DNA of 47,914 bases from Candidatus Doudnabacteria bacterium (GCA_023246005.1 JAHFJG010000009.1:1-47914); one strand, 5' to 3'. Counted from the first letter of the stretch, positions 3,027 through 43,654 are shown. Numbers and translations: made by a program. The notes: a model not told the origin generated them from the letters alone.

Positions 3027-3368
3027 TTATTCTCGAATTTTCGCTTCTTTGCCTTCTCTTGTGTAGTAAAGTTTGGCTTTTCGAGCTGGAGTTTCTTTTA
3101 CGACTTCAATCTTTTCAATATTGGGTGAATGGATCGGAAAAATTCGTTCCACCCCAACACCAGAAGAAATCTTGCGCACAGTGACTGTGCCGTTCATAGC
3201 CTTGCCGCCTTTGGTTGCAATAACCTGACCTTCGAAAATCTGAATGCGTTCCTTTTCCTTGCCATCAGGCGAGATGTCTTTGATTTTCTGGTAAACGCGG
3301 ACAGTGTAGCCAGCTTTGAGTACTGGTACAGTTTTCAAATCTGCTTGTCTAAATGTTTGAATCATCAT
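3027..3368 (-). CDS. rplS: 50S ribosomal protein L19
   Basis: [12 protein letters not shown]...[20 protein letters not shown]...KAKLYY. Confidence 0.97.
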
Positions 3369-4290
3369 AACTAATTTGCACTTGATTAAGAATATTTTTC
3401 AAATCAAGAGGTAGAGTGGAGAACAATTCCAGCCACGTCCCATCCATCAACTGAAACTTTAATTTATAAGCGTGTAGGAATTGCCTGGTCAAGATTGTTG
3501 AATCTTGCTTTAGTCCGTAAACTTGATCGCCAACTATCGGATAGCCGATATGGGCCAAGTGGGCTCGAATCTGATGTGTGCGGCCTGTATGCAATTTTAC
3601 ACGAAGCAGGGAGAATTGTCCAGAAGCATCTAAAACCCAATACTCTGTCAGCGCCGGCTTAACTTTTCCGCCTGAGGCGCCCGCCTGCCCGGCCGGCAGG
3701 GATCCGTCTCTGACGGACATCTTTTGCTTAAGCGGTTGTTTCTCAAGAGGCAGATCAATGACATCATGTTTCTTGCTGGGTGTCCCATGGACTAAGGCTA
3801 AATATTCTTTTTCTACTTTCCGATCCATGAAAAGTTGTTTGAAATAATCATAGCTACCGGGATTCTTGGCAACCAAAATTAATCCTGAAGTATCTTCGTC
3901 CAGCCTGTGGACTATTCCTGGCCGATGTGGCTGCCCGACTTTTTCAATTCCAGGATAGAGACTTATCAAAGCATTAGCCAAAGTATCTTCTGTATTGCCA
4001 GCTCCTGGATGCACAACTAATCCTGCCGGTTTGTCAATCACAACCACCTCCTCGTTTTCAAAAACTATTTTTAATTTGAGATCACTTGGTTTCAGATTAT
4101 CAGATTCAAACTCTGGTAATTCAATCGTATCGCCAACGATAACCATATAATCCGGTTCTAAAATTTCCATACCGTTAACTGAAACCAAACCATGCTTAAT
4201 AGCAGTTTGGACTTTGCCTCTGGAAACCTGAGTTTCGTGGGCCAAAAATTTGTCCAACCGGTCAGTTTGATCTGATGTAAATTTAAGCAT
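3349..4290 (-). CDS. rluD: RluA/RluD-family pseudouridine synthase
   Basis: S4 domain, [29 protein letters not shown]; carries an in-frame palindromic insertion. Confidence 0.92.
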
Positions 4291-12422: not shown

Positions 12423-12725
12423 CCCCCACACCAAACGAATTTAAAAGTCGATTGACTTCTTAATTCGTATTAATAGTTGTCTCCTGGCCCTTGCCCCAAG
12501 CTTGAGATTATGTTCTCTATGACGCGCATCTTGTTCTGAAGCGTAAGCTTCATAATAAACAAGTGTTAACGGTCTTCTATTTCTAGAAGATGGCACAAGT
12601 CCTGAATTATGTTTTTTATATCGTTCTATTAAATTCTTTGTAGATCCAATATATAACAGCTGATCCTTCAAACTTTTTAAGATATAAACGAAAAACATAA
12701 TTCAAAACTCGTTATGGTGTGAGGG
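12423..12725. mobile_element. Family A element carrying a GIY-YIG gene
   Basis: CCCCCACACCA at the left end and TGGTGTGAGGG at the right end bracket the ORF within about 20 bp; flanks TTTA/TGTA. Confidence 0.7.
12441..12698 (-). CDS. Small GIY-YIG nuclease family protein
   Basis: VYILKS...LYIGST...R...H...YYEAY...ARHRE..LK. Confidence 0.92.
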   Translation of the reverse strand: MFFVYILKSLKDQLLYIGSTKNLIERYKKHNSGLVPSSRNRRPLTLVYYEAYASEQDARHREHNLKLGARARRQLLIRIKKSIDF

Positions 12726-12860: not shown

Positions 12861-13100
12861 TTATTTTAGCTTTTTTAAGAATTCTTTACCAGTTCCCGAT
12901 TTCAAATATTTCTCTCTTTGTCTGGCAGAAACTCGATCTGAAAACTCTTCTGTATATATTAATTTAAAAGGCCTATATGCACGCGTTGTTCTTTCTTTAC
13001 CTAGATTATGCTGGACAATCCTCTTTTCAACATTAAATGCTAAACCTACGTAAATATAATTTCTTATCAAACTACTGATCGCATAGACTGAACATTTCAT
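12861..13100 (-). CDS. Small GIY-YIG nuclease family protein
   Basis: VYAISS...YIYVG...R...HN.G...AR.REKYLKSG.GKEF. Confidence 0.92.
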   Translation of the reverse strand: MKCSVYAISSLIRNYIYVGLAFNVEKRIVQHNLGKERTTRAYRPFKLIYTEEFSDRVSARQREKYLKSGTGKEFLKKLK

Positions 13101-13212: not shown

Positions 13213-13590
13213 TTATTTTTTGCCTTTTCTAAAATTGTCCAAATAGACCATAAAGCCACCGATCTGATTGCCTAATTCTTCAAGTTTCTTATTTGCGTCC
13301 TCAAATTCGTCTTCAGTAATATAACCAACAACTAATGCTATACGTAACTGATTACGAACTTCCCCTACAGAACCCTTCGACATCCTAAGAAACCGTATAA
13401 ATTCGTTATTATTATTCTTCTCGAAACCTTCAACTATACAAGAGCTAACTCCAATCATTGCACCTCTAATCTGATCCCTGAGTTTAAAATCCTTACTGAA
13501 TTTTAGATTATTGGATAAATCGTAAACTAACTTTGTCAGCTTCAACGATTCTTGCCAAATTGGCAGTTCTTCGAATCTTTTATATTTCAT
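13213..13590 (-). CDS. Four-helix-bundle protein (23S rRNA IVP-like family)
   Basis: FEELPIWQ...LRDQIRGA...IVEGFE...EFIRFLRMSKGSVGEVRNQL. Confidence 0.92.
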   Translation of the reverse strand: MKYKRFEELPIWQESLKLTKLVYDLSNNLKFSKDFKLRDQIRGAMIGVSSCIVEGFEKNNNNEFIRFLRMSKGSVGEVRNQLRIALVVGYITEDEFEDANKKLEELGNQIGGFMVYLDNFRKGKK

Positions 13591-13881: not shown

Positions 13882-15222
13882 ATGTCAGAACAAGGAAAAG
13901 TGAAGTGGTTTCAGAATGGCTACGGCAGGGTCTCCCGCCCAGACGGCAGTGAAGCGTTCCTGCCTCCGCGAACGTTCGCGAGAGGTGAGGATATCATCGG
14001 GGGCGATGAGTTGGAGTTTGACGTTGAACCTGATCCGGATCCCGCAAGGCCCGGAAAGTTTCTAGCAAAAAATGTGAAGATCATAAACAAGGTCTCACGC
14101 CCAACTCCTAGTCCCATCCCAATACCTGCACCTGCAGCGTCGCCGTTGGCTAAGGAAGAACCCGAGGCAAAAGTGTCGTGGAGATTTGATCCGCCAAAAG
14201 TGCAAGAAGGACTGATGCTGGTGCGAACCTTCATCGCTTTCAAATTCAACAACGACCCAGTGCCAGGAATCGACGTCTCGCTTTTCAAAGTCGACAGTCA
14301 AGCTGAGGAAACTCAAGTTCTAACCCCGACCAAGAAGGCGACGACGAACGAAGAAGGCGAAGTTTACTTCGCTCTGTATCTGGAACCTAGCATTGCTGCG
14401 TGCGATCTGTTTGCCAAAGTTGAAGGGAAGAAATATCCTTTCTTCTGGAGCAAGCCGATCACTGCGAGCGGTGCTGATGCTTCCAATGTTTACGACCTGG
14501 AACTCACCTCCAAACCGGTTAGGCCTGACGGCAAGTTCATGGTTCGCGCCATCACACGCAAAAATGGGGTCGCTCAATCTGATTCTTTTCACTTTTGTCC
14601 AACGTGGGAATGCAAAGTCACTCCCATTCTCGGACACATGGTGGAAATCACGGAAGTCTTTGTCAGAGGAGCTTACACGAGAGTAACTGGCCAACAGATC
14701 AATCTCAACACTCCGGACGGTCAGCTGGTAATTCAAGCTGACCAGACCGGACCTGCTGAAATGCGGATCCAATGGCCGGAGCCATGCCTGGAAATGCACA
14801 CCTCGAATGATGGCGTCGCTGAATTCCTGGTTGAATTCGAAGGGGACAACATGCCTATCGAAGGCCGATACCATGATAAGATTGTCAGCCTTAACCTGGA
14901 AAGGTCGATCGATGATGGCAAAAACTGGACCATTGAAGTACACAACCCGCCGCGCGACCTAGATCCAATCACGGGAATGTTTTTCATCAGCGTGATCACC
15001 CGGAAAGACGGCAAGCAAGCTGATTGCAAGTTCGTGACTATTTCTGAACCTGTCCCTGTTGAAATCAAACAGATGACAGCCGCAGGACCGGTTGCGGTTA
15101 TTGATCTTGCGTCAAAGAGTCCAGGAATTTACCAGCTCTATGTCGAATTCACTGGTCTCTATGCCAAGGTTACATTTCAACTCAACGACGGCACCGAAGC
15201 CGTCGTTCATCTGCGAAAATAG
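13882..15222 (+). CDS. Protein with N-terminal cold-shock/OB-like domain, Pro-rich linker and beta-rich (Ig-like?) domains
   Basis: GKVKWFQNGYGRV...GDELEFDV...AKNV; GGAGG RBS. The Ig-like assignment is inference. Confidence 0.7.
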   Translation: MSEQGKVKWFQNGYGRVSRPDGSEAFLPPRTFARGEDIIGGDELEFDVEPDPDPARPGKFLAKNVKIINKVSRPTPSPIPIPAPAASPLAKEEPEAKVSWRFDPPKVQEGLMLVRTFIAFKFNNDPVPGIDVSLFKVDSQAEETQVLTPTKKATTNEEGEVYFALYLEPSIAACDLFAKVEGKKYPFFWSKPITASGADASNVYDLELTSKPVRPDGKFMVRAITRKNGVAQSDSFHFCPTWECKVTPILGHMVEITEVFVRGAYTRVTGQQINLNTPDGQLVIQADQTGPAEMRIQWPEPCLEMHTSNDGVAEFLVEFEGDNMPIEGRYHDKIVSLNLERSIDDGKNWTIEVHNPPRDLDPITGMFFISVITRKDGKQADCKFVTISEPVPVEIKQMTAAGPVAVIDLASKSPGIYQLYVEFTGLYAKVTFQLNDGTEAVVHLRK

Positions 15223-15230
15223 AGGACATC

Positions 15231-16022
15231 ATGGATGCTTCCACCGAAGGAATAAGGACAATCAAACACTTCATATGGCACACGTTTGAGGAATTGCTGG
15301 AGTTCTTCACAGGGGTGACCATCGGAGCCGTCGGTCATTACTTCGTTAGTGATACCGGCGCCGACGGCAAGAAAAAATTCAGCATCAACCTAAGGAACTT
15401 CCGCCTCGACGCGCCGCACTTTGCCAAAACCGTGGAAGATGTGGCGGAGTTCAATGCGCTCTGTCTCAAACTCCAACCGGGGCAGATGAAACAGCTCGAA
15501 CCATGGATGGTAATCCTCGGCAATCATCAGCGTTCGCATATCGAGATCAATATCGCTGAAATGACTCGCCGACAGAATCTGTCGCCTGACGCAACCACGA
15601 ACAATACTCTGGCTCGACAAGAAGCCTTCACAGCACTGGAGCAATTGGCTAGAGTGGATGCTGCTACTGATCCGGCGAATCCGAATCAGCCTCATCCGGA
15701 TCCAGTGGAACGTTGGAGGGCCAGAAATGCTCACGCCGTGGCGTTCAAACTCATGAGAGCAAACGAGAACGACTACCCCGGCGCCCGCTGGCCAGCAGAA
15801 ATTGGACAAGTCTTGCACGAATTCTTAGTGGAGTTCCAAGCGGCGAAGATGACCTGGGATCAGTGGATGACGCAGCTGACTTCCACAATCGATGCGGATA
15901 CCAACCGTCTCGAACAGGCTCGCATCGCTCGCGAACAAGTTCGCGCGCAAGGTGGATTGCGCGGGGCATGGAACCGGTTCAATCAATCACGACGCCGCCT
16001 GTCGGCTTTTCCGTGGGAGTAG
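15231..16022 (+). CDS. Hypothetical protein
   Basis: RBS and tight operon spacing. Confidence 0.7.
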   Translation: MDASTEGIRTIKHFIWHTFEELLEFFTGVTIGAVGHYFVSDTGADGKKKFSINLRNFRLDAPHFAKTVEDVAEFNALCLKLQPGQMKQLEPWMVILGNHQRSHIEINIAEMTRRQNLSPDATTNNTLARQEAFTALEQLARVDAATDPANPNQPHPDPVERWRARNAHAVAFKLMRANENDYPGARWPAEIGQVLHEFLVEFQAAKMTWDQWMTQLTSTIDADTNRLEQARIAREQVRAQGGLRGAWNRFNQSRRRLSAFPWE

Positions 16023-16052
16023 GTTTAAGCCTACTTCCACAGAGGTACAATC

Positions 16053-16901
16053 ATGGAAGAAACACTCGGAACAGCACGTTCTGCCACGGCTTGGGGTATG
16101 CAAGCTGGTCGCAATGCCCTGGAAGAGACTCGCAATGGTCTCTACGACGTGATCGTACCAATCTACATTCTCGGGCTAGTCCTGCCGATTCCCATCGGCT
16201 GGATCGGCGACTTCATCGGTTGGCTGATTTTGCTCGTACCGACCGTCGTCCGACGAGCCAACATTGCACAGGGTTCCTGGTATGGCGATGCACTGGGATG
16301 GGTTCTTGCCCATATGGAAAATCTAGCAGGATTTTTCTACCACTTGGGGCATATTCCCGCCGCACTCGCGTTCGTTCTCGTCGGTTACTATTATTGGCAG
16401 ATTGTCGGTCGCGGCGTGATTGCGGAAGGAGCCGTGCACGCACTGCCAAATTGGCTACAAAACATCGTAGCCAAATGGAGTGTGCTAGCCGGGGTTCTCG
16501 GCCGAGATTTCCGCATCATGGCAAGCATTGGCATGTGGGGATCGGTTCTGCTCTGGGTACCGCTCGAATTCCCAGTGTGGCGACACGTCTACCACTACTC
16601 CGGAGCACTGGCCTTGACCATGGCTCTGACGTACGTGGTGGCGACGAGCAAGCACTTCGACACGTTCTGGCGAAAATTCTACGGCGGAAATTTGGTCTGG
16701 ATCGCAGCCAGACACGCTCTGGGACTTATGGGGTACGAGCTCGTCTCCCTATGGGCATACGTAAGCTCGACTTCGTTCGACTTCAGTGACCTCGACTCGT
16801 TCGAGATCATGCTTCTCTTTGTGGGACTGGCGCTGGTAGTTGCAATTGTGCTTCCAGCGTTGAGCAAATCAACATCAACGTCAACATCACCAAGCCACTA
16901 A
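16053..16901 (+). CDS. Hypothetical multi-pass membrane protein
   Basis: Multiple hydrophobic helices; GAGG RBS. Confidence 0.75.
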   Translation: MEETLGTARSATAWGMQAGRNALEETRNGLYDVIVPIYILGLVLPIPIGWIGDFIGWLILLVPTVVRRANIAQGSWYGDALGWVLAHMENLAGFFYHLGHIPAALAFVLVGYYYWQIVGRGVIAEGAVHALPNWLQNIVAKWSVLAGVLGRDFRIMASIGMWGSVLLWVPLEFPVWRHVYHYSGALALTMALTYVVATSKHFDTFWRKFYGGNLVWIAARHALGLMGYELVSLWAYVSSTSFDFSDLDSFEIMLLFVGLALVVAIVLPALSKSTSTSTSPSH

Positions 16902-16914
16902 CAGGAGACCAAAA

Positions 16915-17772
16915 ATGCGAAAAACGATCATTCTATTAGTGGTCCTGGTCTGCGCTGGGTATGCAATTCGCACTTGGCACGTTGGCAATCGTGCGAGTTA
17001 CTATCGAGAGGAAGCGAAAGTCGACCACAAGATCGGGCAGATGCATGTTGGCAATACCGCCAAGCTCGAAGACGAGACGAATCCAAAACTCATGAAGCAA
17101 TGGGTCAAAGACGTCGACGTCGCGAGCTTCACGGGGGCAATCCTGCCATCGGCAACCAGGTCTGCCGGCTTGGACAATGCCAAGGATGCCTGGCTGTCTA
17201 GAGCGCAGCGCAAAATTCCGTTGAGGCGCGATCCGTACGTCACTGGCGCTCAGAACGCCTGGAAAACGTTCTTTCCGGCGCACGAAGACATCCTCGTAAC
17301 AGTCGGGAAAGATGATCAGATCTGTAATGGGGAACGGATCAACGAATGCTACCATGCTGATGGGCCATACACAGGTTTCAAGCCCAGCATCATGGATGAG
17401 AAAAAAACGGTGATGCAGGATCCGGATCCCAAGCATGGCGGCAACCCATCATCACCGCCGGGAAACTATCGGGCTCTGATAGCCCGAATCAGCCAACGAG
17501 GCGGACACACCGCGATTGTCGAAACGGGTTTCCAATTCGCAATTTGCGGTGCAAGCGCTGGGGCTGGCGACACAGAACTCTGGACAAATGGGGCCACTAT
17601 AATTGGCCCATCGCACAATGTCCAGGATTTCTGGGGCGGTAGCGGCGGCTACAGCTTCGAAGCAAAACCTGATCGGTTGGCAATGACGGCATGCTTGCTT
17701 CGACCAGGCCAGCCGATCGTGCCACTCGATTCGCTGGCAACGCTGTCAACAATGGCAGCAAACAATCAATAG
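16915..17772 (+). CDS. Hypothetical secreted or membrane-anchored protein
   Basis: MRKTIILLVVLVCAG signal-like N-terminus; AGGAG RBS. Confidence 0.75.
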   Translation: MRKTIILLVVLVCAGYAIRTWHVGNRASYYREEAKVDHKIGQMHVGNTAKLEDETNPKLMKQWVKDVDVASFTGAILPSATRSAGLDNAKDAWLSRAQRKIPLRRDPYVTGAQNAWKTFFPAHEDILVTVGKDDQICNGERINECYHADGPYTGFKPSIMDEKKTVMQDPDPKHGGNPSSPPGNYRALIARISQRGGHTAIVETGFQFAICGASAGAGDTELWTNGATIIGPSHNVQDFWGGSGGYSFEAKPDRLAMTACLLRPGQPIVPLDSLATLSTMAANNQ

Positions 17773-17817
17773 GAGGGTATTGGAAAAACCGATTCAGGCT
17801 ATACGCCTAATCACATA

Positions 17818-17860
17818 CGGGTGTGCGAAGCTACCAAGCTTCCGCACCCGTTTTCTTTTT
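17818..17860 (+). terminator. Intrinsic terminator
   Basis: CGGGTG...CACCCG hairpin followed by a T-tract. Confidence 0.65.
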
Positions 17861-17861
17861 A

Positions 17862-18009
17862 CCCAGTATATCAACTTCGATAATGGTTTTTGAATTTGCT
17901 TTTGCCAAAAGTAGTAGTTATTAATTTTTATTTAACCCTAATCTATAGTTTTAAAATTTAACTAATCAAAAACCATTAAGGGCAAAAGCATCGAAGTTGT
18001 ATTACTGGG
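17862..18009. mobile_element. MITE-like element, family B (CCCAGTATATCAACTTC...GAAGTTGTATTACTGGG)
   Basis: Same two asymmetric ends as the element at 25784-26092; AT-rich core; flanks TTTA/TTTG. Confidence 0.85.
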
Positions 18010-18014
18010 TTTGC

Positions 18015-18365
18015 CTAAAAAATTATTGGTTTTCTATCAATAAAAATTGATTGTATAAATCTTTTTTTCAACTCTTGATCATCAGACCAAGTCACAATAA
18101 TCAGTCTGTTCCCAACATAAAAATAAAGTTCTTGCCATGACAATTTAGATTTTCTACCAAGCACTTTCTTCGATGATAATCTCGTTTCTATTTCCTGCAA
18201 GATAGTTAAATATAATTTTTCGGCACTGGCCTTATAATTTTGGATAATCAATGCCTCACTCCATACACCGCTGTCTTGGTATAATTCAAAAAAAGCCTCC
18301 TCATAATGGCGGATAAATCGCTGCAACTCAACCAAAGCCTGCTCGCTAAATTGCAAATCTATCAT
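18015..18365 (-). CDS. Hypothetical protein (possibly RelE/ParE-like)
   Basis: IDLQFSEQALVEL N-terminus and C-terminal beta pattern; overlaps a small upstream gene. Confidence 0.55.
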   Translation of the reverse strand: MIDLQFSEQALVELQRFIRHYEEAFFELYQDSGVWSEALIIQNYKASAEKLYLTILQEIETRLSSKKVLGRKSKLSWQELYFYVGNRLIIVTWSDDQELKKRFIQSIFIDRKPIIF

Positions 18366-18507
18366 GCTTCTGGGTTTTGAGCGGGACCTGTTTTTTCCAT
18401 TGAGACCGTAGGCGTGCGCGCAATCGCTGGGCTGAAAGTTCCAAGTACGTTTCCATTTCTGCTTTAATCTCATCTAAGGAATAGGTTGTTGTATTATTCT
18501 TCTTCAT
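18346..18507 (-). CDS. Small hypothetical protein (possible antitoxin partner)
   Basis: Short ORF overlapping the downstream gene. Confidence 0.45.
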   Translation of the reverse strand: MKKNNTTTYSLDEIKAEMETYLELSAQRLRARLRSQWKKQVPLKTQKHDRFAI

Positions 18508-18537
18508 ATAAATCAAGTATATCAAGACCAAAAACCA

Positions 18538-18566
18538 TTGACAAGATGGCTTTTTTGTGCTAATAT
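18538..18566 (+). promoter_or_regulatory. Sigma70-type promoter
   Basis: TTGACA-17 bp-TAATAT. Confidence 0.65.
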
Positions 18567-18639
18567 TGAGTGTTCTTTTTACAACGGCTCACTGTCTCAT
18601 TTCCGGCTCACAAAGCCGTGCCTGTAGGAGGGCACAACA

Positions 18640-19593
18640 ATGAAGCGTTTACTTTTCGCCGCACTGCTTGTGGTTCTCGTTTCGTCGTTCGCGTGGGCAC
18701 AAGACGGTCAAATCAGCCTGTCATTCGCCGACACGCCGGTCTACCAGATCGTCAACGCGATCGCCGCGGGCCAAGGCTACAAGCTCAAGCCTGCCGACAA
18801 CCTGCCTGGTGAGAAGGTCAGCATCAATATAGCTGACCAGACCATGGCGCAGGCACTAACGCAGTTGCTTAACCCGCGCGGTTTCGGCTTCCTGATCAAC
18901 TCCACTGATCACGTGATCGTGGTGTACAAGCAAGAAGGCGTGCCTAACGTTGCTAGTAGTATTGCGACTCCTTCACAACAGCCACGCACCGCAATTCAGG
19001 GCGCTCCTTGGGATTTGAGCGTAGCAGGATCATCATATGCGGCTGGAGTTCGAGGGTTCGATGCTCGGGCTTATGCCAGAGAGGCCATGGTAGCCGGAAC
19101 TTACTTGGAAGACCGAGCCTACCTTGAACAACGTCGATTTTCCGGCAGTGACTTGGCGTACTCTCCGGCGAGCTACGGTAGTTCTGGTTTCGGGCGGGTA
19201 TACGGCGGGTACTATGGTGGTAGCTATGGCTACGTCGATCCAGTGTATGGCGCGAGATTTCGAGGCGCGGCAACCACAGGATACATGAAGATCAACGCCA
19301 ACAAAGACACCCATTTTGCAAAGTACCTCCACGTACTACGCAAGGAGGGAAACAATTGGGTGTATGTGGGTGGGGGCGGCAAGTCGTTCCGCAGTTTCCA
19401 TGATCCGATGGAACTGCCAGTCGGACATCAGACCCTGCGATTCGAGCTACGGCGCGATGGCAAAACCCGCTACCTCACGGAGGAGTTTGATATCATGTCC
19501 AAATTCGACCGCCAACATGCGCTACAATACACGGTCGATGAAGATATGTTCAACTCCTTTGCAGATACAGAGGAGATTAAGCGCGAACAGTAA
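18640..19593 (+). CDS. Secreted protein with STN/secretin N0-like domain
   Basis: Signal peptide ending AWA; ISLSFADTPV...KVSINIADQTMAQALTQLL pattern; GY-rich linker. Confidence 0.7.
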   Translation: MKRLLFAALLVVLVSSFAWAQDGQISLSFADTPVYQIVNAIAAGQGYKLKPADNLPGEKVSINIADQTMAQALTQLLNPRGFGFLINSTDHVIVVYKQEGVPNVASSIATPSQQPRTAIQGAPWDLSVAGSSYAAGVRGFDARAYAREAMVAGTYLEDRAYLEQRRFSGSDLAYSPASYGSSGFGRVYGGYYGGSYGYVDPVYGARFRGAATTGYMKINANKDTHFAKYLHVLRKEGNNWVYVGGGGKSFRSFHDPMELPVGHQTLRFELRRDGKTRYLTEEFDIMSKFDRQHALQYTVDEDMFNSFADTEEIKREQ

Positions 19594-20037: not shown

Positions 20038-20442
20038 TTATACCTGGTTGGAAACCAAAGCGTTGGAGATGACGCGCACGATCACGAACGACAGAATGAT
20101 TACCACGATACCAATAATGGCATTCGTAATAATTTTCTTAGCTTGTTCCGCAGTCTCTTCATTGCCGGCGGAAGTGATATAGCGGAAGCCGCCGATGATC
20201 AGGAACAAGACTGCAATCAAGCCGGCAACGGCTAAAGCAATGTTAATTATCTTAATAACGAACCCTGACACTGAAGTATCGTTTGGCAAGCCAGATCCAG
20301 CACCGCTTGGTGTTTGAAATTGAGCAAAAGCAAACGGAGCTAGAGCTAAAACACCAGTTAGCACTAAAACCGAAATTTGAGTTGCTTTTGCAATTGAACT
20401 TTGTTTTCCGCCAAAGGCGGACATATTCACTATTTGTTTCAT
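20038..20442 (-). CDS. TrbC/VirB2-like pilin
   Basis: GGFRYITSAGNEETAEQAKKIITNAIIG. Confidence 0.88.
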   Translation of the reverse strand: MKQIVNMSAFGGKQSSIAKATQISVLVLTGVLALAPFAFAQFQTPSGAGSGLPNDTSVSGFVIKIINIALAVAGLIAVLFLIIGGFRYITSAGNEETAEQAKKIITNAIIGIVVIILSFVIVRVISNALVSNQV

Positions 20443-24261: not shown

Positions 24262-25782
24262 CTACTCTACTTTCGGTCTGTATTGCAACGCTTCGGCTAA
24301 ATGATTAATGGCTATGTCTGGAATTCCTTCAAGATCAGCAATGGTCCTGGCTAACTTTAAAATCCGATGATAAGATCGAGCGGATAAATACATTTTTACC
24401 ACAGCAGTTTTCATAAAATTTTGCTCATCGCTGCCAAGCTGGCAAAATTCTTTAATCTCTTTAATGCCCATTTCAGAATTAGTTTTTATTCCTTTTAAAT
24501 TCGTAAATCTTTCGGTTTGAATGTCCCTGGCTTTCTGGACTCTAACCTGAATATTTTCTGAAGATTCTCCGGGTGATTCTGAAGATAATTTTTCATATTC
24601 CAAACGGCCGACCTCGACATGCAAATCAATGCGATCGAGCAATGGCCCTGAAATCTTTTTTTGATACTTCATGATTTGACCAGGAGTACAAATACAGCTT
24701 TTGGTTGGATCTGAATAATAGCCGCAGGGACAAGGGTTCTGAGCTGCAACCAAAGTAAACTGGGCTGGAAATGTGGCTGTGGAATGCACACGCGCAACTG
24801 TCACAATACCATCTTCCAAGGGCTGTCTTAGATTCTCAAGTACCGATCGGGAGAATTCCGGAAATTCATCCAAGAACAAAACACCTCGATGGGCCAGAGA
24901 AATTTCACCTGGTTTCGGGTTGCTTCCTCCCCCGACTAAAGCAATTCCAGAGGTTGTGTGGTGCGGACTCCGAAAAGGTCTGGCTGTAACTAAAGTTTTA
25001 TTTATGTTCAATAACCCTGCTACACTATAAACTTTCGTAATTTCTAAAACCTCATCTGCAGTCAGTTTAGGCAAAATTGAAGGCAAGGCTTTGGCGAGCA
25101 ATGTTTTGCCAGTGCCAGGAGGACCAGACAAAAGTAAATTATGTCCTCCAGAAGCTGCGATTTCAAGCGCGCGTTTGGCTGCCTCTTGGCCTTTGATCAG
25201 CTGCATATCAAAGACCGTTTCAGGCGTTTGTAAAATTCTATTCCAATCAGCAGATTCAACCATTTCAACTTTAATCAAGCCTTGTAAATAACCTATAACT
25301 TCATACAAACTTTTAACAGGGATAATTTCTATGCCAGTAACCAAGCTCGCTTCCTTGGTGTTGCCTTTGGGTATAAACACTTGTTTAAATCCCCGCTCCT
25401 TAGCCATGAGCAAAATTGACAAAACGCCAGAAACTGTCCTTAGATTTCCATCTAAGGCTAATTCTCCAACAAACAATTTATCTTTTGGTTCAAAAAATAT
25501 CTGACCGGAATTATGTAAAATAGATAACGCAATTGGCAAATCATAGTATGTCCCATTTTTAGGCAAGTCAGCAGGCGCTAGATTTACAGCAATGTGGGTG
25601 GGTGGAAAGATAGCACTGGAATTTCTGATTGCTGACTTGACTCGTTCTTTCGCTTCTTGGACAGCTGCGTCTGGCAAACCGACAATAATAGTTTTGGGCA
25701 AACCTCCTGAAATATCAACTTCGACCTCGATGAGTGCGGCATTCAAACCTATTAGAGACGCGGAATAAATTTTTGCGGGCAT
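24262..25782 (-). CDS. comM: YifB/ComM Mg-chelatase-like AAA+ ATPase
   Basis: VGLPDAAVQEAKERV, GPPGTGKT, PFRSPHH, PGEISLAHRGVLFLDE, NPCPCG; start set at MPAKIYS. Confidence 0.95.
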   Translation of the reverse strand: MPAKIYSASLIGLNAALIEVEVDISGGLPKTIIVGLPDAAVQEAKERVKSAIRNSSAIFPPTHIAVNLAPADLPKNGTYYDLPIALSILHNSGQIFFEPKDKLFVGELALDGNLRTVSGVLSILLMAKERGFKQVFIPKGNTKEASLVTGIEIIPVKSLYEVIGYLQGLIKVEMVESADWNRILQTPETVFDMQLIKGQEAAKRALEIAASGGHNLLLSGPPGTGKTLLAKALPSILPKLTADEVLEITKVYSVAGLLNINKTLVTARPFRSPHHTTSGIALVGGGSNPKPGEISLAHRGVLFLDEFPEFSRSVLENLRQPLEDGIVTVARVHSTATFPAQFTLVAAQNPCPCGYYSDPTKSCICTPGQIMKYQKKISGPLLDRIDLHVEVGRLEYEKLSSESPGESSENIQVRVQKARDIQTERFTNLKGIKTNSEMGIKEIKEFCQLGSDEQNFMKTAVVKMYLSARSYHRILKLARTIADLEGIPDIAINHLAEALQYRPKVE

Positions 25783-25783
25783 A

Positions 25784-26092
25784 CCCAGTATATCAACTTC
25801 CCGTGCCAAACGCCGATTGGCGTTGGTACTCTAATAATCTTAGTCCGGTAAATCTTCTGCCTTGGGTTGTTTTAAGATACTTCTCACGGCGTTTGGCATC
25901 TTTCTCTGATAAACAAGCTTCATAGTAAATAAGCTTAAAAGGCAGTCTAAACTTGGAGGAAAAGTTATAGCCATGCTCGTGTTCTTTTATTCGTCTAGTT
26001 AAATTGTTCGTATGCCCGATGTAGTTCTTACCGTCTGTTAAACTCTCAAGAATGTAGACATAAAAGAACACGTGGGAAGTTGTATTACTGGG
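25784..26092. mobile_element. Family B element carrying a GIY-YIG gene, with 4-bp target duplication
   Basis: CCCAGTATATCAACTTCCC...GGGAAGTTGTATTACTGGG flanked on both sides by CATA. Confidence 0.85.
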
Positions 26093-26095
26093 CAT
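25793..26095 (-). CDS. Small GIY-YIG nuclease family protein
   Basis: FYVYILES...YIGHT...RR..EH...YYEA...AKRREKYLK; stop codon lies in the inverted repeat; alternative GTG start at 26071. Confidence 0.92.
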   Translation of the reverse strand: MPSNTTSHVFFYVYILESLTDGKNYIGHTNNLTRRIKEHEHGYNFSSKFRLPFKLIYYEACLSEKDAKRREKYLKTTQGRRFTGLRLLEYQRQSAFGTGS

Positions 26096-26582: not shown

Positions 26583-27227
26583 TTACTCTAATCTTCTAAT
26601 TACTCCGATTACTTTACCCTGAATCGACCATTCATTTTCAGGGTAGATATTTGGATAATCCTTATTCTCGGCTTTCAAATAAAATTTATTGTCTTTTCCG
26701 CCAGAGGCGGATCCGCCTCCGGCGGATTTCACTAAACGCTTAACCGTAGCTTCATCTTCAAGCAATGCTACCACTATATCGTTGATATCTGCAATCTTTT
26801 GTTGCTTCACAATCACCAGATCCCCATTCAAGATTCCTGCATCCTTCATACTCATGCCTTGGACTTTTAGGAGAAAAACATCTTTGCGGCCTCGAATCAA
26901 ACTGGTTGGTAGATTCAGCCAATCTTCAATCTGTTCTTCAGCTAGCATGGGAAGTCCTGCTGTGATTCGGCCAAGTAATGGAACACTAATCAATCCTCGT
27001 CCTACAGGTTCACCTTCTGGATTTAAGACTTCAATGCCTCGAGCCTTACTTGATCTGCGGATGTAACCTTTAGTTTCCAAAACCCGGAGTAATTTTGCCA
27101 CAGCGTTTTTAGATTTAACTCTAAGGCCTTTGGCGATTTCTGAAATTGAAGGTGGAAGCCCTTTTTTTTGGATTTCATCAGTTAATAGTTCTAATAATTG
27201 TTTTTGCTTGGACGTTAGTTCATTCAT
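26583..27227 (-). CDS. lexA: SOS repressor LexA
   Basis: LTSKQ..., PPSISEI, AG cleavage site (ITAGLP), GMSM, ATVKR; start set at MNEL. Confidence 0.95.
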   Translation of the reverse strand: MNELTSKQKQLLELLTDEIQKKGLPPSISEIAKGLRVKSKNAVAKLLRVLETKGYIRRSSKARGIEVLNPEGEPVGRGLISVPLLGRITAGLPMLAEEQIEDWLNLPTSLIRGRKDVFLLKVQGMSMKDAGILNGDLVIVKQQKIADINDIVVALLEDEATVKRLVKSAGGGSASGGKDNKFYLKAENKDYPNIYPENEWSIQGKVIGVIRRLE

Positions 27228-27311
27228 ATGTTTGGAGGTTTTCGAAGGAACTAGTAGATTCGGGGCGGCTCCTAGCTTACCGGTTCCTTCGTTTTTACCT
27301 TCCATGATTAT

Positions 27312-36715: not shown

Positions 36716-37009
36716 TTAATGAGAAGATTTATCAATCGAAACTCGAAGTCTCGTATTGAGGCCAATAGCAACCCGATTAAGAAATTTCAGTGTCGGATTA
36801 TACGTGCCTTGTTCCAATCGAGAAATAACTGGTTGCTTGGTTCCGATTTTTTTGGCTAATTGCGTTTGGGTCAATCCCTGCTCTAATCTTTTTCTAATTA
36901 ACATTTCTACCAAAGCAAATTCTGGACCCAATTCATCATAGGCTTTCTTAAATGCCCCGTCTTTGAGCATTTCCTTTTTGAAACTTCTGTAATTTCTATA
37001 ACTTTGCAT
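36716..37009 (-). CDS. HTH-XRE antitoxin (HigA-like)
   Basis: LTQTQLAKKIGTKQPVISRLEQG. Confidence 0.88.
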   Translation of the reverse strand: MQSYRNYRSFKKEMLKDGAFKKAYDELGPEFALVEMLIRKRLEQGLTQTQLAKKIGTKQPVISRLEQGTYNPTLKFLNRVAIGLNTRLRVSIDKSSH

Positions 37010-37032
37010 ATATAATATATATAACTTATAAG

Positions 37033-37344
37033 TTATATTCTGTCAAGCTCTTTTATTTTACTGATTGCCTTTTCTATTTCTCTCTTCGGTGTTTGCTGGG
37101 ATTTCTTGACAAATCCGCTCAACAGATAAATTTGATTTCGATAAAAACAATAAAAAATCCTGACTTCTTGCCGGCCGCTAATTCTTAATTCAAATAGCCG
37201 ATCCAAAATCTTTTTAGAATGCGGCGTCCTTAATCTATAGCCAAATTCTTCTAAAAGCTCAAGCGTCCTAGCGACCTTAGCCCTAGTCCCTGCCTCAAGA
37301 CTCAAAATGAAAACTTCAACTTCCCTACCAATATTTATTTGCAT
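37033..37344 (-). CDS. RelE/HigB (Gp49-like) toxin
   Basis: PHSKK...LFELR...RIFY...LLSGFVKKSQQTP. Confidence 0.88.
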   Translation of the reverse strand: MQINIGREVEVFILSLEAGTRAKVARTLELLEEFGYRLRTPHSKKILDRLFELRISGRQEVRIFYCFYRNQIYLLSGFVKKSQQTPKREIEKAISKIKELDRI

Positions 37345-37356
37345 GACTTTGTTGCT

Positions 37357-37448
37357 AAATACAAAAACGGCTTATTAAAAACTCGTCAAACGAGTCTTAT
37401 AGCCGCTCTTGGAGATATTATGCTCCCGCTCTAATTATTTTGTCAAAT
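37357..37448 (-). repeat. Promoter-plus-hairpin repeat, copy 2 (longer hairpin loop)
   Basis: TTGACA...CATAAT...GCGGCT...AGCCGTTTTTGTATTTA. Confidence 0.6.
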
Positions 37449-37747
37449 TACACAAATTCAATTTTAAGATTTCGCTTATAAGCCTTGGCGAATTTTTCCA
37501 AAGTTTGAACAGTCACGTTTTCATTGCCGGCCTCAATTCGCGCGATATTGCTTTGCGAAGTGCCCAATTTTTTGGCAACTTGGGCTTGGGATAGCTTGGA
37601 CTTTTTCCTCATTTGCAAAAGCGCATAAGCAATTTCGAATTGGCGACCAAACTCGTCATAATATTTCTTAAAAGTTGGATCTTTCAGTTGCTCGTCCAGA
37701 TATGGTTGGAAGTCTACTAAATTTGGATGATTTTTATCGTCGTTCAT
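37448..37747 (-). CDS. HTH-XRE antitoxin (HigA-like)
   Basis: LSQAQVAKKLGTSQSNIARIEAG. Confidence 0.88.
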   Translation of the reverse strand: MNDDKNHPNLVDFQPYLDEQLKDPTFKKYYDEFGRQFEIAYALLQMRKKSKLSQAQVAKKLGTSQSNIARIEAGNENVTVQTLEKFAKAYKRNLKIEFV

Positions 37748-37751
37748 ATGA

Positions 37752-38117
37752 TTACTTACGATTTAATATTTTGATTAGATTATTTTCGGCTTTAATAATT
37801 TCTGATTCTGGGATTGCTGGGGTATTTTTGAGAAAAGCGTGCAATAAGACAATATTTCTATTGATAAAAGTAAAATAAAAAATCCTGTGGCGATTGCGAG
37901 CAAAATCAACTCTCAGCTCCCTTAACTTTCCTCGAATATGCTTAGTATATGGTTCATCTAAAACGCCGTTATGCTGTCTTAAAACTTCAATATACTTTGC
38001 GACTTTAACTCGATCTTTCTCTGAAATCTGATCCAAATATTCCTGGACAGGAATTCGACCCGTCAAAATATCTTTATAAAATACTATCTTATACTCTTCA
38101 TTTTCATTATATATCAT
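37752..38117 (-). CDS. RelE/HigB (Gp49-like) toxin
   Basis: PYTKHIRGKLRELR...RIFYF...LLHAFLKNT. Confidence 0.88.
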   Translation of the reverse strand: MIYNENEEYKIVFYKDILTGRIPVQEYLDQISEKDRVKVAKYIEVLRQHNGVLDEPYTKHIRGKLRELRVDFARNRHRIFYFTFINRNIVLLHAFLKNTPAIPESEIIKAENNLIKILNRK

Positions 38118-42333: not shown

Positions 42334-43332
42334 TTACTTGATCCGCCACGCCTCTCCATCCTTCACTAGTTTACCTTTGATTTTAAACCCCGAGGCCAGT
42401 TTGTGTCCGCCACCGCCGAATGATTTGGCGATTTTCGACACATCAACTTTTTTTTGCGGCTCGCTGCGCAAACTGCCTTTCACCACTTCCCCGTCCTGGC
42501 GCAGAAGCAGAGCAAATTTGGCTTGCGGCATATTGTTAAGCAACTCGACAAATCCGTCAAGATCAGCGTCAGTGGCACCAATTTCTTTTAAATCTTCTTC
42601 AGTTAGAATCGAGAACACCATTTTCTTATCAGGATCAAACCGGGCGTTTTCCAAACCCTTGGCCCAAGCTTTAATAGCCTGGGGTCGTTTCTTGCCCATG
42701 GTCTGAAGCGCGATCTTGTCAATCCTGGCGCCTTTTTTTAAAAGTTCGGACGCGACCTTAAATGCGGCGGCTGAAGTATTGGCATGCTTGAATCCACCGG
42801 TGTCAGTAAAGATTCCGGTTAGCAGACAAGTGGCGATATCCTTAGTGATCTCGGCATCAGCAAAAGTTAAAAAATAATAAACCAATTCAGCCACAGCAGA
42901 GGTCTCGGCGTCCACGATATTGACTGTGCCAAAATTCGTGTTGTCCGGATGATGGTCAAAATTAATTATTGGCACTTTCAAGTTTTGCAGCCGTCCGCCA
43001 AAGTCGCCCGCCTGCCCGGCCGGCAGGGATCCGCCTCCGGCGGAAAATCCTGTTCGCTCGAGTTTGTTGCAACCAAAAAAAATCGCCAAATCAAAATCAA
43101 GTTCTGGAATTGTTTGCAGAACGCTTTCTGAACCAGGCAAAAAGCTTAGATTATCCGGAACAACGCCTTTAATTACCGATGTTGGATCTTTTTTTAATTG
43201 CTTCAAAAAGGACTGCATGGCTAAAACCGAACCCAAATCATCACCGTCCGGTCCTTCGTGCATGGTTAAAAATATTTTTCGGGAAGAATTGATGAGCTCT
43301 AATGTTTTTTTGAATTGTAATCTATTCTTCAT
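42334..43332 (-). CDS. nrnA: DHH-family oligoribonuclease / pAp phosphatase
   Basis: HEGPDGD, DHH, TDTGGF, GGGGHKLASG; downstream of rbfA; carries an in-frame palindromic insertion. Confidence 0.92.
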   Translation of the reverse strand: MKNRLQFKKTLELINSSRKIFLTMHEGPDGDDLGSVLAMQSFLKQLKKDPTSVIKGVVPDNLSFLPGSESVLQTIPELDFDLAIFFGCNKLERTGFSAGGGSLPAGQAGDFGGRLQNLKVPIINFDHHPDNTNFGTVNIVDAETSAVAELVYYFLTFADAEITKDIATCLLTGIFTDTGGFKHANTSAAAFKVASELLKKGARIDKIALQTMGKKRPQAIKAWAKGLENARFDPDKKMVFSILTEEDLKEIGATDADLDGFVELLNNMPQAKFALLLRQDGEVVKGSLRSEPQKKVDVSKIAKSFGGGGHKLASGFKIKGKLVKDGEAWRIK

Positions 43333-43654
43333 AAGTCTTACGAAGCAGTTCACTAATATGCGAGGCGTATTCTTCACCGTGGTCAATCATAAATTTGACT
43401 CTTGGCACAAACTTCATAACCAACTTGCGGTTAAGCGAGCCTTGTAAATCAAAGAGGGTTTTTTGTAATTCAGCCAAAACCTCTTTCTGTCTGTCATCTT
43501 CGCCCATAACCGTGATCCAGACTTTGCACCATTTTAAATCCGGCGTGACTTCGACTTTGCTAATCGTGGTCAAGCTCGGCAGTTCCATTTGATTTATATA
43601 GTCTCCAACTTCCTCATGCAACAAAGCGGCAACTTTTTCTGTCCTACGACTCAT
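43322..43654 (-). CDS. rbfA: Ribosome-binding factor A
   Basis: TISKVEVTPDLK...KFVPRVKFMID; follows infB. Confidence 0.93.
   Translation of the reverse strand: MSRRTEKVAALLHEEVGDYINQMELPSLTTISKVEVTPDLKWCKVWITVMGEDDRQKEVLAELQKTLFDLQGSLNRKLVMKFVPRVKFMIDHGEEYASHISELLRKTYEE

Follow-up and report, generated by a model that had tools for sequence, protein, structure and literature searches.

The DNA examined here is a 47,914-nucleotide contig of a Candidatus Doudnabacteria bacterium (GCA_023246005.1 JAHFJG010000009.1:1-47914), hereafter the window, which is contig C27 of an assembly (G000) of 672,938 bp in 43 contigs, with 41.9% G+C and about 80% completeness. Four of its minus-strand genes contain very short G+C-rich palindromic inserts built from a 15-nucleotide hairpin (A) and a 21-nucleotide element (B), arranged as a single A, as a 30-bp doublet (AA), or as a 51-bp composite (ABA). 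Judged by comparison with orthologous sequences, these are true, lineage-specific in-frame insertions. In our view, they probably derive from a selfish, non-autonomous element, ultra-short and palindromic, that is mobilised in trans and has a second-order element nested in it; the doublet appears to rank among the smallest mobile DNA elements seen to date.

Palindromic inserts in four genes of the window

Pattern searches of the window located exact copies of A (TCCGCCNNNGGCGGA) at 20407-20421, 26697-26711, 26712-26726, and 43030-43044, four occurrences against 0.00 expected from 100 dinucleotide shuffles. Exact copies of B (CCCGCCTGCCCGGCCGGCAGG) were found at 3680-3700 and 43007-43027, with none expected from 100 shuffles, and allowing up to three mismatches revealed no further copy of B in the window. 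A preliminary description, made from the sequence alone, had reported the 15-bp module singly in a pilin gene and as a 30-bp tandem in the LexA gene, together with two 51-bp tandems, in an RluA and an NrnA-like gene, carrying an identical 21-bp element at the same point; the sequence reads as it had been described, and all four insert lengths (15, 30, 51, and 51 bp) are multiples of three, as also claimed there.

The first composite (3667-3717) lies in the gene of an RluD-type pseudouridine synthase with S4 and PseudoU_synth_2 domains (3349-4290, minus strand), referred to here as RluA. On the plus strand it reads TCCGCCTGAGGCG-CCCGCCTGCCCGGCCGGCAGG-GA-TCCGTCTCTGACGGA, that is, the first 13 nucleotides of A (3667-3679), B (3680-3700), GA (3701-3702), and an uninterrupted module (3703-3717) that is a stem-compensated variant of A. 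The second composite (42994-43044), in the gene of a DHH/DHHA1 phosphoesterase resembling NrnA (42334-43386, minus strand), is built alike, with B at 43007-43027 followed by GA and an intact A at 43030-43044; its interrupted module has one stem mismatch (GTCG). The doublet at 26697-26726, two head-to-tail copies of TCCGCCNNNGGCGGA, falls in the S24 peptidase domain of LexA (26583-27305, minus strand), and the single A at 20407-20421 stands directly after the ancestral start of the gene of a T4SS pilin paralogue (20038-20442, minus strand). On the coding strand, the inserts are translated as 17 amino acids in RluA, 17 amino acids in the NrnA-like protein, SAGGGSASGG in LexA, and SAFGG in the pilin.

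Folding of the LexA doublet in single-stranded form gives a single hairpin, of 13 bp and with GATC in its loop (-16.2 kcal/mol, z -6.2). The centre of the doublet is the palindrome GGCGGATCCGCC, whose GATC occupies the hairpin loop and which is split by B. An Rfam search of the window returned only three tRNAs and no match at the elements. In the literature searched, GGCGGATCCGCC was met only in cloning primers, and no published description of such elements in these bacteria was found; most subscription journals lay outside the coverage of this search, which leaves that absence unproven.

The preliminary description had predicted that orthologues would lack the inserted residues, and that the modules add Gly/Ser/Ala-rich loops in frame. 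Both predictions held. The 17 residues of the NrnA-like protein were present in none of 24 family orthologues, the protein changing from RTGF-K-QLQN to RTGF-[17 aa]-R-LQN. In LexA, GTGAAR and AAAGAC adjoin directly in 20 of 21 orthologues, the G000 gene being longer there by exactly 30 bp (10 amino acids); the LexA gene of G012 carries a different copy, TCCACCAAAGGTGGA-TCCGCCTCTGGCGGA, with a compensated stem, at the same point. The five additional residues of the pilin (SAFGG) were found in none of five orthologues. In RluA, 17 of 19 orthologues have a short turn, KM-K[VI]GxG-K, in place of the 17 additional residues. The RluA gene of G022 is filled at the same site by a doublet lacking B, TCCGTCAGAGACGGA-TCCGCCTCCGGCGGA, and that of G014 has a decayed copy, in which 7 of 30 positions no longer match the intact copy of G022. 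In an AlphaFold model of G000 RluA (mean predicted local distance difference test score, pLDDT, 87.6; 18 sequences, two orthologues with internal stops having been excluded), the insert was predicted as a coil that follows strand E191-193 and precedes strand E209-211, the block pLDDT values being 63 and 59. The RluA of G010 (contig C7; L082:932-1070) has an unrelated insert of about 21 amino acids in the next variable loop, which is not one of these elements.

The comparison was also made in the opposite direction, with 38 element sites retrieved from five relatives (G001, G010, G008, G016, and G012). An orthologue in G000 spanned 26 of them: 22 were without the element in G000, three were shared, and one was ambiguous. 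Seven of the 22 empty sites appeared as exact gaps of 10 or 17 amino acids.

Copy number, reading frame, target site, and nesting

Counting the module genome-wide, as the preliminary description had suggested, gave 31 exact A copies in G000 (673 kb) against none in five order-3 Markov shuffles, and 81 copies against 13-28 when up to two mismatches were allowed; B was present in 12 copies (10 exact, one with one mismatch, and one with three). The palindromic module is therefore real, as had been claimed; the recurring unit, however, is the 30-bp doublet and not the single 15-bp module. Merging these copies gave 40 loci in G000, of which 35 lie inside stop-to-stop open reading frames (ORFs) that are 100 codons or longer; 31 of these 35 are in the frame TCC-GCC, which is read as SAxGG on either strand, and within this frame B is read as SLPAGQAG or RLPGRQG, depending on orientation. 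Among the doublets of the five relatives, 32 of 36 were in this frame (frame 0); of the others, three were in frame 2 (PPxADPPxAE) and the fourth in frame 1. Both B-bearing composites were in frame 0. As the length is divisible by three and SAxGG is read from either strand, a copy landing at a codon boundary only adds a flexible, linker-like loop. The search patterns themselves fix the length, and only one composite whose length is not a multiple of three, of 50 bp in G106, was met, in a gapped-pattern search over the order.

The hosts in G000 are core genes; their proteins include a class I aminoacyl-tRNA synthetase, ArgRS, RecG, RuvB, RpoB, RpoD, GyrA, SecA, both halves of DNA polymerase I (Pol I), S19, L17, GatC, two PBP2 proteins, and Sua5. 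Many copies are near an end of their ORF (in its first or its last 12%), and those that survive are at the ends of proteins, in turns, or in linkers between domains. In G000 (C30:1543-3880), Pol I is broken into a 5'-3' exonuclease ORF of 315 amino acids and a polymerase ORF of 476 amino acids, with an ABA insert about 90-120 bp ahead of the break; in most relatives it is one ORF of about 760-1000 amino acids, and the G012 gene also has a stop.

The exact doublet was detected in 14 of 25 genomes of the family and, at the level of the order, in 54 of 146, with up to 19 copies in genus g65; it was absent from genus g21 and family f2 in the order scan. An even sample of the phylum gave the doublet in 22 of 401 genomes, 14 of 376 outside the order, and a scan of all species genomes gave at least 125 stretches. 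A reversed-pattern control gave no match in any genome searched in the family, order, and phylum scans. Among the 80 matches listed from the widest scan, many belong to candidate-phyla-radiation groups, and record titles also name Kiritimatiellae, Omnitrophota, Verrucomicrobiota, Ignavibacteria, Lentisphaerae, Planctomycetales, Chloroflexota, Desulfotomaculaceae, and 'Gammaproteobacteria'; two genomes of this cross-phylum listing hold 41 copies (G522, 4.1 Mb) and 32 copies (G526, 1.4 Mb). Carriage by phages was considered and rejected, the doublet occurring in just two viral contigs and B in none. In three genomes with Ignavibacteria titles (loci L143, L156, and L187), the doublet is at the same place (…SVQF-[insert]-…SGVYFYRL), in regions that we take to be C-terminal sorting domains of the type IX secretion system.

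Doublets are inserted between TTN and NAA in either orientation, and the empty orthologous sites already read TTY|RAA. No target-site duplication was seen when filled and empty sites were compared (TTC|GAA, TTG|GAA, CTC|AAA, and AAG|AAA). In 50 elements, giving 100 symmetrised flanks with a genome T frequency of 0.29, position -2 was T in 82 flanks and A in 18, position -3 was T in 64 and A in 26, and position -1 was T in 56, C in 22, G in 21, and A in one; at the 82 loci of the wide scans, position -2 was T in 134 of 164 flanks. The commonest form of the doublet is TCCGCCAAAGGCGGA-TCCGCCTCCGGCGGA. Its loop pair AAA/TCC was present in 19 of 43 doublets of six genomes and was the commonest pair in the wide scans (12 of 82), so that the family has a definite master sequence, which is asymmetric and has entered its targets in either orientation.

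The preliminary description had further proposed that one palindrome targets the other, which is supported by B-free doublets at orthologous sites and by B or its variants at the same point in four other genomes. B interrupts the doublet at the single point GGCG^GATCC in all 12 copies of G000 and in both copies of G008; since the doublet folds as one hairpin with a GATC loop, this point is the 5' stem/loop junction. At three ABA sites of G000, relatives have a plain doublet at the orthologous position, namely in RluA (G022), L17 (G008), and the Pol I linker (G008, G006, G012, and G022), and at a site in an Fmt-like gene G010 has AA, G008 has ABA, and G000 is empty. Allowing one mismatch, B was found in only two of the 25 family genomes (11 copies in G000 and two in G008). 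A gapped-pattern search for inserts at GGCG^GATCC across the order recovered an identical B in G104 and variants of B in G044, G100, and G102; G044 also has two other 30-bp inserts at this point. Ten of the 12 copies of B in G000 are exact and stand beside unlike loops 4 and 8 nucleotides away, which argues for precise insertion and not for long conversion tracts. The inner hairpin of B occurs in both orientations when G044 and G000 are compared (TGCCCGGCCGGCA and TGCCGGCCGGGCA), and this flip/flop hints at hairpin replication intermediates.

Mobilisation and competing explanations

The mechanism that we propose takes the 30-bp doublet of two 15-bp G+C-rich hairpins as the putative working unit. 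It would spread by copy-and-paste through a single-stranded hairpin intermediate, produced by a nuclease supplied in trans, for which the small stand-alone GIY-YIG nucleases are the best, though weak, candidate. The frame bias would result from purifying selection on the encoded peptide, the stems may be kept paired by quasi-palindrome correction, gene conversion, or a need for recognition, and B would be a second hairpin element landing at the 5' stem/loop junction of the doublet.

That GIY-YIG genes are mobilisers had been suggested in the preliminary description. The number of GIY-YIG matches per genome (0-18) correlates with the number of doublets (Spearman 0.56 over the 146 order genomes; 0.55, 0.53, and 0.72 in families f1, f3, and f4, 0.56 for genus means, and 0.35 without g65, g21, and f2), and every genome with at least four doublets has at least five GIY-YIG matches. 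To this extent the suggestion stands. Against it, the correlation is confounded and inflated by relatedness, with mixed within-genus contrasts; G070 has 18 GIY-YIG matches and no doublet, and G525 has the doublet and just a UvrC-sized match; and in six family genomes only 3 of 45 cases place a small GIY-YIG gene at 1 kb or less from a doublet, where arithmetic predicts about one, which is unconvincing. From these genomic patterns, small stand-alone GIY-YIG nucleases can be put forward only tentatively as the best candidate for the mobiliser.

G000 has nine small GIY-YIG genes, none of which is flanked by A modules. Three are inside the window, all on the minus strand: the candidate mobiliser gene at 25793-26095, about 630 bp from the LexA doublet; a gene at 12441-12698 that adjoins a tRNA gene; and a third at 12885-13094, with a CCTGCC..GGCAGG hairpin 29-49 nucleotides upstream. 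In G522, A modules occur 28-250 bp upstream or up to 500 bp downstream at 3 of 14 GIY-YIG neighbourhoods inspected. In the same genome, a doublet (L239; G522:C23:35800-39300) is inside a repeat of about 185 bp with the motif GTCATTCCGAGCG…GAGGAATCTC, which is also found directly upstream of several GIY-YIG genes. The candidate mobiliser gene at 25793-26095 belongs to a 322-bp cassette whose two copies, at window positions 25770-26095 and at G000:C30:31580-31900, are 100% identical. The cassette starts with TTTATGCCC and ends with TATGCCC, the last ATGCCC being the start of the downstream gene (ComM/Mg-chelatase-like in the window), as if the cassette inserted at ATGCCC start codons.

Two other nuclease families were examined and set aside. 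For the Y1/RAYT (REP-associated tyrosine transposase) family (PF01797, in 74 of the 146 order genomes), co-occurrence with the doublet had an odds ratio of 2.8, which fell to 1.4 without genus g65: 36 genomes had both, 18 the doublet only, 38 Y1 only, and 54 neither. Carriers of the doublet free of Y1 include G012, G008, G010, and G016, with 6-9 copies each, and the likewise doublet-rich G043, of which G012, G008, G010, and G043 are nearly complete; G012 (nine copies) and G008 (eight copies) are 96-97% complete and have no PF01797 match. HNH, taken as a control nuclease, was not associated with the doublet (odds ratio 0.65).

Several further observations qualify the reading as a selfish mobile element or weigh against it. 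Neither movement nor presence/absence polymorphism within a population was seen: four groundwater-metagenome runs of one study, one of which may be the source of this DNA, contain the window stretch, all as Logan contigs, and these end at the repeats, so that polymorphism is unreadable; no RNA dataset was listed among the holders of the stretch. The RluA and NrnA-like inserts are imperfectly clean, with one to three adjoining codons also altered. B also occurs outside A. Its 57 exact copies in metagenome contigs comprise seven in exact ABA, four in ABA within three mismatches, three beside variant hairpins, and about 12 on their own between flanks below 50% G+C; the remaining 31 have flanks of at least 50% G+C, mostly above 60%, and are likely chance or genic matches. 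The stems are conserved while the loops vary, which may point to structural selection: 15 of 45 two-mismatch copies of A keep all six pairs, against about 3% expected by chance (by arithmetic), and 12 of the others are halves interrupted by B.

The same nucleotide position can moreover be filled in genomes that are not sisters and empty in their sisters, as in the Pol I linker, in LexA (G000 and G012), and in TrmD (G016 and G012). A FastTree phylogeny of RluA, NrnA, and LexA (831 columns, midpoint root) grouped G000 with G001, G010, and G021 (support 0.99) and set it well apart from both G012/G006/G020 and G022/G014/G024. Among 24 informative genomes, the Pol I linker is filled in G000, G008, G006, G012, and G022 and empty in the sister genomes G001, G010, G016, G020, and G014. 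Flanking synonymous sites track each lineage, so repeated hits on a narrow hot spot are preferred, and we favour a hot spot made of the TTN|NAA preference and tolerated loops. Shared sites are equally compatible with an old insertion followed by many precise losses, or with short-patch exchange between lineages, and an additional AGTTTG common to G008 and G006 at the Pol I linker is left unexplained by the hot spot. The RluA copies of G000 and G022 are identical at 29 of 30 positions and have a rare stem variant in common, in genes that are 64% identical at the DNA level; such likeness is not expected of neutral junk. A recombination tract around this shared copy was looked for by sliding identity, which showed none outside the element.

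These last features would fit the strongest of the alternatives, in which the hairpins are functional nucleic-acid signals placed within genes for want of intergenic space and kept by selection, for instance as a protein-binding or processing site, an mRNA-stability or pausing element, or a DNA uptake or recombination tag. The paired stems with their compensated copies, the near-identity of the two RluA copies, the filling of the same sites in distant lineages, and the palindromic centre with GATC in its loop all agree with it. It is nevertheless unlikely, given that the distribution is patchy even within genera (no positive genome in g21, differing sisters, and 92 of 146 order genomes without the doublet), that the element is in different genes in different genomes at a density of about one locus per 17 kb in G000, and that the G014 copy has decayed; quasi-palindrome correction can also keep stems paired without selection.

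Local and repeated production of the inserts by host repair or replication, through template switching at TTN|NAA or hairpin-primed synthesis, would account for the lack of target-site duplication, for doublets that are perfect 30-bp palindromes of a module and its own reverse complement (for example, at G000:C26:5997), and for the two orientations of the B loop among genomes, as hairpin intermediates predict. Such a process would hardly place the same 24 fixed bases, often with the AAA/TCC pair, at hundreds of unrelated sites across phyla, nor keep B identical in 10 of 12 G000 copies, in G008, and in G104, and we regard it as improbable. Still less credible is selection for the Ser-Ala-x-Gly-Gly peptide itself, as a linker or a recognition or modification motif, with the DNA palindrome as a by-product. 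The frame bias (31 of 35 and 32 of 36) and the location of inserts at turns and linkers are in its favour; however, among the 82 listed wide-scan loci, taken as 150 bases each, the SAxGG frame was fully open in 50, no frame was open in 20, and only other frames were open in 12, copies in frame 2 exist, the host proteins are unrelated, and the codons are identical everywhere despite the many synonyms for Ser, Ala, and Gly. An assembly or sequencing artefact, to which the breaking of Logan contigs at the elements and the lack of a bridging contig might point, has a negligible chance of being the explanation, since the inserts are in frame at codon boundaries, recur at orthologous sites in separately assembled genomes, are spread over 54 of the 146 order genomes and over records from many projects and assemblers, and appear with unlike flanks in many contigs of the four runs.

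If the reading as a selfish, trans-mobilised element is right, the lower size limit of bacterial mobile DNA would move to 15-30 bp, and the element would be shaped for translational harmlessness on either strand. Some of the many small lineage-specific insertions in the core proteins of the candidate phyla radiation would be accounted for, uncultured groundwater lineages would gain a simple marker of horizontal exchange, and the abundant, unexplained small GIY-YIG genes would have a testable role. The inserts can also mislead orthologue alignment, structure prediction, and assembly, as contigs break there. A wider version, which we hold to be doubtful, sees a cross-phylum family of 'linker-coding' palindromes, 30-bp doublets that would have evolved to encode a harmless Ser/Ala/Gly loop in one frame of either strand, would be moved in trans by the multi-copy, free-standing small GIY-YIG nucleases through structure-specific nicking at TTN|NAA and hairpin-templated repair, and would bear hyper-parasite hairpins of 21 or 30 bp at their stem/loop junction. 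If true, this would be the smallest autonomous-looking mobile unit in bacteria and a steady source of loops for the core proteins of ultra-small bacteria.

Relation to known short elements and other features of the window

The element resembles Rickettsia palindromic elements (RPEs), doublets of repetitive extragenic palindromes (REPs and REPINs), and the small dispersed repeats (SDRs) of cyanobacteria in its working, and it falls outside RPEs, REPs/REPINs, and transposable elements of the miniature inverted-repeat kind (MITEs) as these are defined. RPEs are described as palindromic repeats in frame in many unrelated, often essential genes, with a fold that tolerates the peptide and a mobiliser that is unknown (PMC10969869). 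The elements studied here are likewise palindromic repeats in frame within protein-coding genes. They differ in that RPEs measure about 100-150 bp and form ten families with a conserved peptide of tens of residues in one genus, whereas the present units measure 15, 30, and 51 bp, give the same benign peptide on both strands, host a nested second element, and cross phyla.

REPs and REPINs are non-autonomous, short G+C-rich palindromes whose doublet unit folds as one long or two small hairpins and which form clusters and nested insertions (PMC3116915). The present doublets can also form one long hairpin; in contrast to REPs, which are extragenic, 35 of 40 G000 loci are in ORFs of at least 100 codons. 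REPs bear a GTAG or CGTC tag (PMC3733652). Here, modules begin with TCCGCC, flanks read TTN, and no such tag is visible. Nor is the RAYT/Y1 partnership of REPs general here, as 18 of 54 doublet-bearing genomes, including G012 and G008, have no PF01797 match. The comparison of filled and empty sites, with no duplicated target, separates the doublet from MITEs, whose terminal inverted repeats go with a target-site duplication. A GIY-YIG homing endonuclease would cleave an empty site that the insertion then destroys; what bears on such a system here is that B splits GGCGGATCCGCC, together with the copy-number correlation and the few neighbourhoods described above.

The SDRs of Nostoc and relatives (Elhai et al. 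2008) are reportedly 21-27 nucleotides long, share a hairpin, and were proposed as the smallest mobile elements; one SDR family is said to occur only inside the short palindrome HIP1, and nested self-insertions are also said to occur. In this they come close to B, a 21-bp hairpin at a fixed point of the doublet in 14 of 14 copies of G000 and G008; they differ in being cyanobacterial, probably unrelated in sequence, and not known as in-frame additions to core proteins. The mobile G+C clusters of yeast mitochondria and the double-hairpin elements are G+C-rich hairpins that spread in A+T-rich organelle genomes. Short palindromes are also described for Volvox (PMC2670323) and, within coding sequence, for Nematomorpha (PMC6649704). 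Organelle palindromes of this kind share the G+C-rich hairpins, single or tandem and sometimes within coding regions, and differ in their organellar location, in being for the most part non-coding or of lengths not divisible by three, and in belonging to other families of sequence. Transposition of the IS200/IS605 type uses hairpin ends and insertion beside a short specific sequence without target-site duplication. Here the likeness is of mechanism only (a hairpin, a short target sequence, and no target-site duplication), because the doublet shows no Y1 association without g65 (odds ratio 1.4) and is too short for guide sequences.

Among the other features of the window, the stretch at 13882-19593 looks like a foreign island: it has plus-strand ORFs of 446, 263, 282, 285, and 317 amino acids with no Pfam match (E<=1e-5) and a G+C fraction of 0.47-0.52, against about 0.40 elsewhere, the rest of the window being almost wholly minus-strand. 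A gene for a 23S-rRNA-intervening-sequence protein is present at 13213-13590, though Rfam gives no rRNA in the window. At 36716-38117, two Gp49/HTH (HigB/HigA-like) pairs stand beside a Fic/RhuM gene and a Pif1-like helicase gene. Elsewhere in G000, C7:1-8200 and C5:8050-8130 contain a separate family of longer repeats with other G+C-rich hairpins, such as GCCTGCCTGCGGCAGGCAGGG (C7:1088, 6338, and 7211) and GTCCCGCGAAGCGGGAC; the flank attccgttcgag recurs in it.

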